This document shows positions 12,379-14,206 of a stretch of 64,000 bases of DNA, one piece after another; the stretch's first letter is position 1; every line of letters begins with the position of its first letter. Source of the stretch: Clostridiales bacterium (GTDB lineage Bacteria; Bacillota; Clostridia; Monoglobales; JAIRYP01); the NCBI GenBank assembly GCA_031267755.1, contig JAIRYP010000015.1:142538-206537 (forward strand). Reading direction: 5' to 3'. The notes beneath the pieces were generated by a model that saw only the letters and a program-made list of their open reading frames with translations, did not search any database and was not told where the DNA came from. Made by a program: the position numbers and the translations under genes.

Positions 12379-12615
12379 ATGGCTGGTGCGCAGAAATTTT
12401 TGCATCGTGTAAACCAATATGGAGTTACTAATGATTTAGAAAATAATAAATTTTTAGATAATTTAAAAAAAGATGATCGAAAAAATTTTGTTGCCAGAGA
12501 AAATGACGAAAGAGTTTATGTTGAGAAATTTTGTGATGAAGTTAGTTTTGATAAGTATAATTGTGATTTTGGTGATCGTAATGGAAATAGAAATGACGAT
12601 ATTTTAAATTTTTAG
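12379..12615 (+). CDS. hypothetical 78-aa protein (MAG-start small protein, cassette member)
   Basis: GAGGAG RBS present. Its 3' ~115 bp plus the downstream RBS region are duplicated at 13203-13349. Confidence 0.5.
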   Translation: MAGAQKFLHRVNQYGVTNDLENNKFLDNLKKDDRKNFVARENDERVYVEKFCDEVSFDKYNCDFGDRNGNRNDDILNF

Positions 12616-12648
12616 TTTATAAAATCACATCTATAAGGAGGAAATAAA

Positions 12649-13180
12649 ATGTCTGGAACAAAATGTTGTTTAGATAAACGAGTTATAGCAGGTAAATGTG
12701 AACCTGGAGATGATTCTGAACGTGAAGTGGCAAGATGTTTTAATTATTATATGTCGAAGAAAAGATTTTTTGGATTTGAGAAGGAATGTGATCCGGTGTT
12801 ATCTGGATTTAAAGCAGCAAAAGGTCGTACTAGACCATATGATAATCCAAAGTATGTTTTGTTGTCAAGAAATTTAAAGGAGAGTTTTATTATGGGTGCG
12901 TTAGATAGTTTTGTACGTTTTGAAAACGCTAAAAGCCCAGCGGGAAGGGGGGGGCAGTGTGAACGAAACTGTGGCCAGGGTTGTCAATTATATGAAAAGT
13001 GTTTCCAAAGATGATTCTGAACGTGTCCCGGAAAGTATTACTGATTATTGTGAAAGTGATGACAAGTTAGAAAGTTTTTTAAACTTAAAATTGCCAAGGG
13101 ATCTTAAAGGTGATTTTAAACTCGCTTCTAACGCCCCAAGAGAATTTATTCCGAGTTCAATGAAGCCATCACAAAAGTGA
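12649..13180 (+). pseudogene. frameshifted or phase-variable member of an MSGT...PSSMxPxQK small-protein family
   Basis: Track ORFs 12649..13014 and 12911..13180 overlap in different frames, and the switch falls at a G8 run (12947-12954). The second frame ends in a tail homologous to the end of ORF 13338..13781. Losing one G would give a single 176-aa ORF. Confidence 0.6.
12947..12954 (+). repeat. G8 homopolymer at the frame switch
   Basis: Direct reading: cgggaaGGGGGGGGcagtg. Confidence 0.9.
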
Positions 13181-13202
13181 ATTTTTAAGTTTTTTCATTA
13201 AA

Positions 13203-13304
13203 GAAAATGATAAAAGAGTTTATGTTGAATCTGGTTTTGATAAGTATAATTGTGATTTTGGTGATCGTAATGGAAATAGAAATGACGATATTTTAAATTT
13301 TTAG
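13203..13304 (+). pseudogene. 5'-truncated relic copy of the 78-aa gene at 12379..12615
   Basis: Near-identical to 12499-12615, including the stop codon, with one internal replacement/deletion. It has no start codon or 5' half. Confidence 0.6.
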
Positions 13305-13337
13305 TTTATAAAATTATGTTTATAATGAGGAAATAAA

Positions 13338-13781
13338 ATGTCTGGAACAGAATCTTATTTATCTGAAGATGTATTAAAACAAAATGTGCTTGATCCTTCA
13401 ACTTTAAATTATGAGATTGCAAGAATACTTGGCGATGATTGGGATAAAGAAATGCCAAATTTGTGGTACATTAATGTTACATTTGGGGTTTTTGCAGGAA
13501 CAAGTAGGATTTGTTTTTTAACGGAAAATTTTGAGGAGATAATGTGGATTTTTTCGACTTATTCTCCCCAAGAAAAGCAATTTGAACGTGTTTTGGTTGA
13601 TTTTAAAAGTGAAGAGATGATTAAAAATTTAGTTGAACATTTTGATGAAAATTATTTTGAACTTGAATTGCCAAGTGATCTTGAACGTAGTATGAAAAAG
13701 GATCTCACAGGTGATTCTGGAATCGATTCAAACGTTCCAAGAAAATTTACTCCGAGTTCAATGAGGCCATTACAAAAGTGA
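13338..13781 (+). CDS. hypothetical 147-aa protein, MSGT...PSSMRPLQK family
   Basis: The RBS and first four codons are identical to gene 12649 (aaataaaATGTCTGGAACA). The C-terminal tail DSNVPRKFTPSSMRPLQK is homologous to SNAPREFIPSSMKPSQK. The body is unrelated. Confidence 0.6.
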   Translation: MSGTESYLSEDVLKQNVLDPSTLNYEIARILGDDWDKEMPNLWYINVTFGVFAGTSRICFLTENFEEIMWIFSTYSPQEKQFERVLVDFKSEEMIKNLVEHFDENYFELELPSDLERSMKKDLTGDSGIDSNVPRKFTPSSMRPLQK

Positions 13782-13969
13782 ATTTTTAAATTTTAGGCTC
13801 TGTGTAGCGATGAAACTTTGTGTTTTATTATTTGGTATTTTGATGAAATTTTGTTATATATTGTGTCTTGAAAGAATATTTATGTTTAGAATACTATAAA
13901 TTTGTGACTATTTATAAGAGCCTTTGAGCTTTTGTTGTTTTACATATTTTATTATTTGGAGGAATAAAA

Positions 13970-14206
13970 ATGGCTGGTCTTTTACCTTATGTTATAGAAA
14001 GTGGACTTTCTAATAAAACTTATATTACCGAAAGGGAAGCTGAAAGAATAAGAAAAGATTTTGATGAGCTTTGTCAAGATTGGCGTGAAGAGTTTAAAGG
14101 TGCAAGCGTTTTTATTTCTAGTGACGACCGAACACCAGGTAGAAATCTTTATGATATCAAAAATGGTAGTCAATATTTTTGGTTTCGTGGAAGGAACACA
14201 TTATAA
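13970..14206 (+). CDS. hypothetical 78-aa protein (second MAG-start small protein)
   Basis: GGAGG RBS present. It has the same length and the same first three codons (ATGGCTGGT) as ORF 12379. No motif recognised. Confidence 0.5.
   Translation: MAGLLPYVIESGLSNKTYITEREAERIRKDFDELCQDWREEFKGASVFISSDDRTPGRNLYDIKNGSQYFWFRGRNTL

Follow-up and report, generated by a model that had tools for sequence, protein, structure and literature searches.

Repeated ends around unrelated bodies in a cluster of orphan small genes between mnmG and thrS of an uncultured Clostridiales bacterium

Genes and repeats between mnmG and thrS

The DNA analyzed here (the window) is a 64-kb part of a 240,496-bp contig from a metagenome-assembled Clostridiales bacterium (locus tags LBJ09_037xx; GC content of the genome ~28%). 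Between mnmG (10362-12224) and thrS (from ~14654) it carries a cluster of small orphan genes, which are, in order, MAG1, MSGT1 (frameshifted), a start-less relic of MAG1, MSGT2 and MAG2, followed by a terminator-like hairpin. This order and its coordinates, described in an earlier reading made from the letters alone (the sequence-only reading), agree with the list of open reading frames (ORFs). Two segments occur twice in the cluster: Y at the beginning and Z at the end of the MSGT genes. The features, including the Shine-Dalgarno (SD) sequences where these were singled out, are as follows; sizes are in amino acids (aa) and nucleotides (nt).

12379-12615, + strand: MAG1, a 78-aa orphan (MDR1392278.1), acidic (isoelectric point, pI, 5.0) and hydrophilic, with the SD sequence AGGAG 8 nt upstream
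12498-12663, + strand: Y, copy A, comprising the last 39 MAG1 codons, the 33-nt spacer between MAG1 and MSGT1, the SD sequence GGAGG and ATGTCTGGAACA
12649-12954, + strand: upstream part of MSGT1, in frame 1; as written it ends with a stop codon at 13014 (121 aa, MDR1392279.1)
12947-12954, + strand: G8 homopolymer, the point of the +1 frame shift in MSGT1
12956-13180, + strand: downstream part of MSGT1, in frame 2, bearing the common C-terminal tail
13096-13193, + strand: Z, copy A, comprising the last 28 MSGT1 codons, TGA and 13 nt
13188/13202-13304, + strand: relic of MAG1 (codons ~36-78), with no start codon; the extension to 13188 comes from tblastn (E = 6e-15)
13202-13352, + strand: Y', copy B of Y, which gives MSGT2 its SD sequence and first four codons
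13338-13781, + strand: MSGT2, an intact 147-aa orphan (MDR1392281.1), acidic (pI 4.5)
13697-13794, + strand: Z', copy B of Z, the 3' end of MSGT2
13970-14206, + strand: MAG2, a 78-aa orphan (MDR1392282.1)
14329-14356, + strand: terminator-like hairpin, then a T run, closing the cluster

All the ORFs of the locus are real genes with native coding character. On a log-likelihood scale of codon usage, for which 24 long genes of the window served as training set, MAG1, MSGT2, MAG2 and each half of MSGT1 reach 0.33 to 0.57 per codon; known genes score 0.40±0.10 and off-frame readings -0.66±0.19. A strong SD sequence stands at the proper distance ahead of each small gene. At a stop probability of 9% per codon, frames of 78 and 147 codons would stay open by chance with probabilities of 6e-4 and 8e-7, respectively. 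An alternative genetic code was ruled out, as TGA terminates 8 of 42 genes and long ORFs are intact.

MAG2, separated from MSGT2 by a 188-nt spacer in which a promoter-like site occurs (13868-13897), had been taken for a second copy of MAG1. This idea had to be dropped: the two proteins show no relationship (p=0.63) once M-A-G and the initiation region are set aside. The initiation regions of all four genes (12363-12389, 12632-12656, 13322-13348 and 13953-13979) are alike, each with GAGGA, an A-rich 7-nt spacer, ATG, KCT and GG, and it is because of this resemblance that unrelated proteins start with MAG or MSG. Either selection for efficient initiation or local copying on a small scale could account for it. 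In the whole window, five ORFs of at least 40 aa start with M-[AS]-G, namely the four genes of the locus and a 729-aa orphan described below.

Origin of the constant ends and unrelated bodies

In a gapped alignment Y and Y' are 93% identical, with Y' having a 15-nt in-frame deletion and 10 substitutions; in an ungapped one, 12518-12672 and 13207-13361 agree at 88%. An 81-nt run is perfect (12545-12625 = 13234-13314), and a perfect 23-nt block spans the ribosome-binding site and ATGTCTGGAACA, the first four codons. The recurrence of the 5' segment pointed out in the sequence-only reading is thereby confirmed. The relic keeps the frame of MAG1 and, over its 3' 71 nt, matches MAG1 without a difference. 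Near the junction its changes run mostly from GC to AT, which is what decay of non-coding DNA should bring about in a genome of 28% GC. An overlapping, hydrophobic small ORF within Y (12473-12607 and 13208-13297) was considered and rejected: its peptide (LVLISIIVILVIV) is hydrophobic in both copies and reminiscent of a type I toxin, but codon usage is not coding-like.

Z and Z' are 84% identical over 98 nt (16 differences). The 3' recurrence is thus real, but longer than the ~50 nt originally proposed. Weaker similarity reaches a further 27-51 nt upstream of Z, around an 8-codon insertion in MSGT2. At the protein level the tails give a local score of 91, against 20.7±4.3 for shuffles. Chance is excluded as a source of the constant blocks, each of which yielded 0 matches in 100 shuffles, and a dot-plot, the check suggested at the outset, returned 11 segments against 0.8 in shuffles. 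The bodies between these ends are no more alike than shuffles, whether compared as proteins (Smith-Waterman score 29 versus 25.4±4.2, p=0.18) or as DNA (p=0.80), and were rightly described as unrelated.

The repeats stand head to tail and meet in a novel end-to-beginning junction at ~13186-13202, where the stop region of MSGT1 is joined to MAG1 codon ~36-40 and the upstream gene is truncated; this is the arrangement of a tandem segmental duplication. Constant ends with variable middles are, on the other hand, also the look of strain bubbles. Since the sequence is a metagenome-assembled genome, and homopolymer errors are common in long-read assemblies, two strain alleles of a single MAG1-MSGT locus might have been stitched in series, with a homopolymer error at G8. 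We regard such an artefact as very unlikely. Neither allele would hold the specific Z-to-Y' junction. This junction, the deletion and 10 substitutions that set Y' apart from Y, the AT-biased decay of the relic near the junction and the 16% difference between Z and Z' all argue for an evolved tandem arrangement rather than a collapsed bubble.

Divergence is uneven along the repeats. The outer part of Y differs at 5 of 32 nt and by an indel (~16% diverged), which is similar to Z, and the inner part at 5 of 116 nt. Under uniform divergence the 81-nt perfect run is improbable (p=0.003), and Y and Z differ in divergence (p=0.02). An RNA element was rejected as the cause of Y conservation: the perfect tract has no Rfam match, its folding energy equals that of shuffles (z about 0) and no compensatory pairs are seen. 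As the run has no such explanation at the RNA level, the simplest reading is that it represents a later gene-conversion patch.

The tails differ as much at nonsynonymous as at synonymous positions (pN 0.19 and pS 0.17, from 15 differences), which suggests that they are young rather than strongly constrained, and alike through recency, not strong purifying selection. With the non-coding relic at 93-100% identity, the tails at 84% and pS close to pN, freely drifting sequence of that age should still be more than 80% identical; the bodies, it would follow, did not diverge after this duplication. Judged from these alignments, ordinary divergence cannot explain constant ends together with unalignable bodies, and some recombination, either body replacement or end conversion, appears to be required.

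Could the MSGT genes nonetheless be ordinary old paralogues, long diverged, whose ends were kept alike by repeated short conversions with no body replaced? The perfect Y patch does look like conversion, identity fades over codons 5-9 with no sharp break, and the bodies have in common a weak GDD motif and patchy 20/25-nt matches. Even so, conversion would have had to act on both ends separately and never on the middle. Moreover, the MAG1 relic shows that the second copy came with a segmental duplication of MAG1 and MSGT, whose outer flank is only ~16% diverged and hence recent relative to the divergence of the bodies. We hold this alternative to be rather unlikely.

MSGT1 also contains a 17-nt exact repeat (12708-12724 = 13009-13025), in phase and encoding DDSER in both halves of the gene. 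Short in-phase repeats of this sort suggest that the locus rearranged repeatedly, and they lend something to the notion of gene fission, in which tandem copies of a single ancestral MSGT gene, ~300 aa long and made up of start, body 1, body 2 and tail, would each have lost one body, copy 1 body 2 and copy 2 body 1. Fission would yield unrelated bodies between common ends with no foreign DNA, and would fit the native codon usage of both bodies. It is nevertheless unlikely, as it needs two independent in-frame deletions and leaves the different ages of Y and Z unexplained; no relative with a fused gene was found, and MSGT2 has no homologue at all.

On balance we favor, with some reserve, a history in which an orphan pair was duplicated in tandem and then reshaped by segment replacement and gene conversion, one copy now being out of frame at the poly-G tract. 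The starting point would have been an operon specific to the lineage and coding for small soluble proteins (MAG1, MSGT, MAG2). The relic starts at the end of MSGT1, so that a duplicated unit of ~700 bp would extend from a breakpoint inside MAG1, near codon 36-40, to another ~10 nt past the MSGT stop. Such an event would have left the start-less 3' relic of MAG1, along with the original spacer, ribosome-binding site and first four codons, ahead of the second MSGT gene. Later recombination would have made both MSGT genes mosaic: either one central body was replaced through flanking homology, or the bodies stem from a much older split and their ends were homogenized. A subsequent conversion patch would have restored identity over ~80-115 nt of the 5' constant segment. 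What we observe are the repeats and their junction, the mosaic profile of identity, the coding character, the frame switch and the absence of relatives; the order of events and the role of recombination as their cause are what we infer from these.

Several points weigh against this history. The nearest mnmG found in a synteny search of 185,579 species representatives is only 54% identical, other relatives being equally distant or more so, and hence there is no comparator genome against which to check it. The search for further copies took in only the 64-kb window, part of one 240-kb contig of one genome. The large protein-collection searches took in three of the small proteins, MSGT2, MAG1 and MAG2. 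The two bodies may have a common fold, reflecting very old paralogy, as single-sequence AlphaFold2 models of MSGT2 and repaired MSGT1 have confidence values (pLDDT) of 38 and 40, too low for use. The pS/pN (dN/dS) estimate for the tails rests on only 15 differences. Lastly, the frameshift at G8 may stem from a homopolymer error made in assembling the metagenome, to which we assign a substantial chance, short of an even one.

The sequence-only reading saw in constant ends around variable bodies the architecture of cassette exchange or gene conversion. Part of this stands, in that recombination seems required and the perfect patch is conversion-like; a dedicated cassette-switching system, in contrast, is unsupported on present evidence. 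In a true diversification system of this type, Y and Z would act as handles through which other bodies, silent or expressed and kept elsewhere in the genome, are swapped into an expressed slot. The constant ends around unrelated bodies, the perfect patch and the hypermutable G8 run in one copy would all suit it. Yet the search for further cassettes, proposed along with that idea, found only two copies of each constant end in the window, both with a ribosome-binding site and a start codon. No recombinase, integrase or reverse transcriptase was found among the scanned neighbors, the proteins are cytoplasmic by hydropathy and the tail shows no strong purifying selection. Variants were likewise missing from sequence collections: the Y and Z cores had 0 matches in metagenome_contigs and viral_contigs, and the Z core, the only one searched there, 0 matches in genome_contigs, the source genome itself being absent from the metagenome and genome sets. 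We consider such a system unlikely.

The G tracts and neighboring genes

The frameshift in MSGT1, already recognized from the sequence, was confirmed and could be placed at the G8 tract. The coding signal changes frame between 12946 and 12956: frame 1 is coding-like up to 12946 and weak past the G run, and frame 2 takes over. Removal of one G from G8 gives an intact 176-aa ORF carrying the common tail, and either G7 or G10 results in a single ORF of 176/177 aa. The depositors did not annotate a frameshift but two hypothetical proteins, one of 121 aa (LBJ09_03720) and one of 62 aa (12992-13180; LBJ09_03725, MDR1392280.1). From composition, 0.05 runs of at least eight G residues are expected in the window; two are observed. 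The G8 tract lies inside the reading frame, is far longer than composition predicts and is located where the frame is set, as in phase-variable contingency genes. Homopolymer tracts are documented as hypermutable on/off switches in prokaryotes (PMC2831843). The G8 run of MSGT1 would be either such a switch, operating by slipped-strand mispairing, or the mark of a decaying copy; phase variation of MSGT1 is accordingly putative.

The second long run is a G10 tract (41576-41585), in frame and encoding WGGGE, inside the intact 729-aa orphan (40723-42912, MDR1392302.1). This protein starts M-A-G-T, contains internal repeats of ~30 aa and has no match in Pfam; its gene may be a second contingency gene. 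It is preceded by a 740-nt gap that is very rich in AT. The adjoining stretch of the window (36839-40722) looks accessory, with orphan ORFs of 641 aa (+ strand) and 143 aa (- strand) and a gene for an XRE/Cro-type helix-turn-helix protein (39616-39978).

One can further imagine a minimal, two-slot variation module, in which Y and Z serve as handles, strains carry unrelated, idiomorph-like MSGT bodies and the duplication captured two of them; the G8 tract, plus deletion between Y and Y' or Z and Z', would then decide which variant is made. We think this improbable. If true, the module and the G10-bearing M-A-G-T orphan would make up a poly-G contingency system, and to our knowledge none has been described in spore-forming Clostridia. 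The host of the present locus encodes the sporulation proteins SpoIIIAF, SpoIIIAH and dipicolinate synthase A.

If the mosaic and the G8 tract do reflect active switching, the locus would combine recombination and homopolymer phase variation in an unusually small, self-contained form, in an uncultured spore-forming Clostridiales, and its orphan proteins would be candidates for a new conflict pair (toxin/antidote or anti-phage). If they do not, it would still provide a tidy case of duplication, gene conversion and segment replacement creating orphan gene diversity, and of annotation splitting a frameshifted gene into two hypothetical proteins.

Housekeeping genes lie on both sides of the cluster: pyruvate kinase, pgi and a dnaI-like ATPase upstream, and signal peptidase I, L19 and rho downstream. 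The locus had been thought to replace rsmG. The case for this is weak, since the surroundings of mnmG are non-canonical on both sides, with pgi and the dnaI-like gene upstream and a 5'-shortened thrS downstream; among the 30 ORFs of the window that were scanned with Pfam, none matched rsmG (GidB). In the 14207-14725 region thrS appears to be shortened at its 5' end: similarity to ThrS begins at 14654, directly after an in-frame TAG and at about residue 58 of B. subtilis ThrS. No ATG, GTG or TTG occurs before 14723; there is an SD sequence (AGGGGG, 14652-14657) followed by an in-frame ATC at 14666, and the product has no TGS domain. The 450-nt AT-rich region upstream of thrS has no match to a T-box or any other Rfam family.

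Orphan proteins and comparison with known systems

All four small proteins are singletons among 15 billion sequences. MSGT2, MAG1 and MAG2 matched only themselves among 5.8 billion proteins, and so did MSGT2 in an exhaustive HMMER search of 1.84 billion representatives; the 62-aa protein of the same genome, which bears the tail and is present in the collection, was not among the results, and tail-only relatives would thus escape these searches. Nothing was found at E<0.001 in Pfam, NCBIfam, PADLOC or PHROGs. MAG1 was rejected as an anti-sigma-F factor Fin, scoring 13.7 bits with PF10955 (cut-off 23.7) and 14.3 with NF053765 (cut-off 95). Sequence searches of the PDB, blastn and tblastn searches of phages and plasmids, and an IMG/VR scan with repaired MSGT1 gave no match. 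By hydropathy the four proteins are soluble and cytoplasmic, with neither signal peptide nor membrane segment (maximal 19-residue value 1.10, no N-terminal hydrophobic segment).

The evidence presented here concerns evolutionary history, not function. We offer only tentatively the guess that the genes form a fast-evolving accessory conflict pair (toxin/antidote or similar), on the grounds of a small acidic protein with a larger basic one behind it, orphan genes, a unit both duplicated and mosaic, and a hypermutable tract in one copy. Like type II toxin-antitoxin systems, the locus has a small acidic gene (MAG1, pI 5.0) and, 33 nt later, a larger basic one (repaired MSGT1, pI 9.0), here orphan and duplicated. 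In contrast to them, MSGT2 is acidic, as a toxin typically is not, and no DNA-binding motif was detected in MAG1. The small proteins have no match to toxin-antitoxin or defence families, and show none of the defining features of toxin/antidote-type families.

Integrons offer no parallel: no inverted repeat is present at Z or Z', no attC-like repeat was found and no integrase is encoded among the neighbors. Closer in outline are the antigenic variation systems (Neisseria pilE/pilS, Borrelia vlsE and Anaplasma msp2), which likewise have constant ends around a variable center. Unlike them, the locus has no silent library in the 64 kb: there are no start-less, promoter-less donors, only two copies that are both expressible. 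Its proteins, moreover, carry no signal peptide or membrane anchor that would speak for surface exposure.

The orphan toxin-immunity modules of polymorphic toxin loci (CDI cdiA-CT/cdiI, Rhs and LXG/EsaG arrays) resemble the locus in having a fragment from the constant region of an upstream gene ahead of a second, different module, in homology that would allow swapping or deletion, and in fast-evolving orphan proteins. They differ from it in that their constant region is fused to a variable tip, whereas the relic derives from the constant 3' end of a small gene that stands apart. No toxin, immunity, LXG, WXG, PAAR, Rhs or VENN signature was found in the small proteins (Pfam, NCBIfam, PADLOC and PHROG, E<0.001), and no secretion genes occur among the scanned neighbors.

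We know of no poly-G switches in spore-forming Clostridiales. Low-GC Campylobacter have phase-variable poly-G genes, of which MSGT1 is reminiscent by virtue of a G8 tract located in an ORF of a 28% GC genome, at the site of a frameshift. The principle is that of the homopolymer switches cited above (PMC2831843).

Tandem duplication with concerted evolution (gene conversion) of paralogue ends does not, in its simple form, predict centers that share nothing. In its other traits the locus conforms to this class: the unit is repeated head to tail, a truncated copy of the upstream gene marks the junction, identity is patchy and one tract is perfect. As in tandem duplications of this kind, further deletions or amplifications could arise through the repeats.

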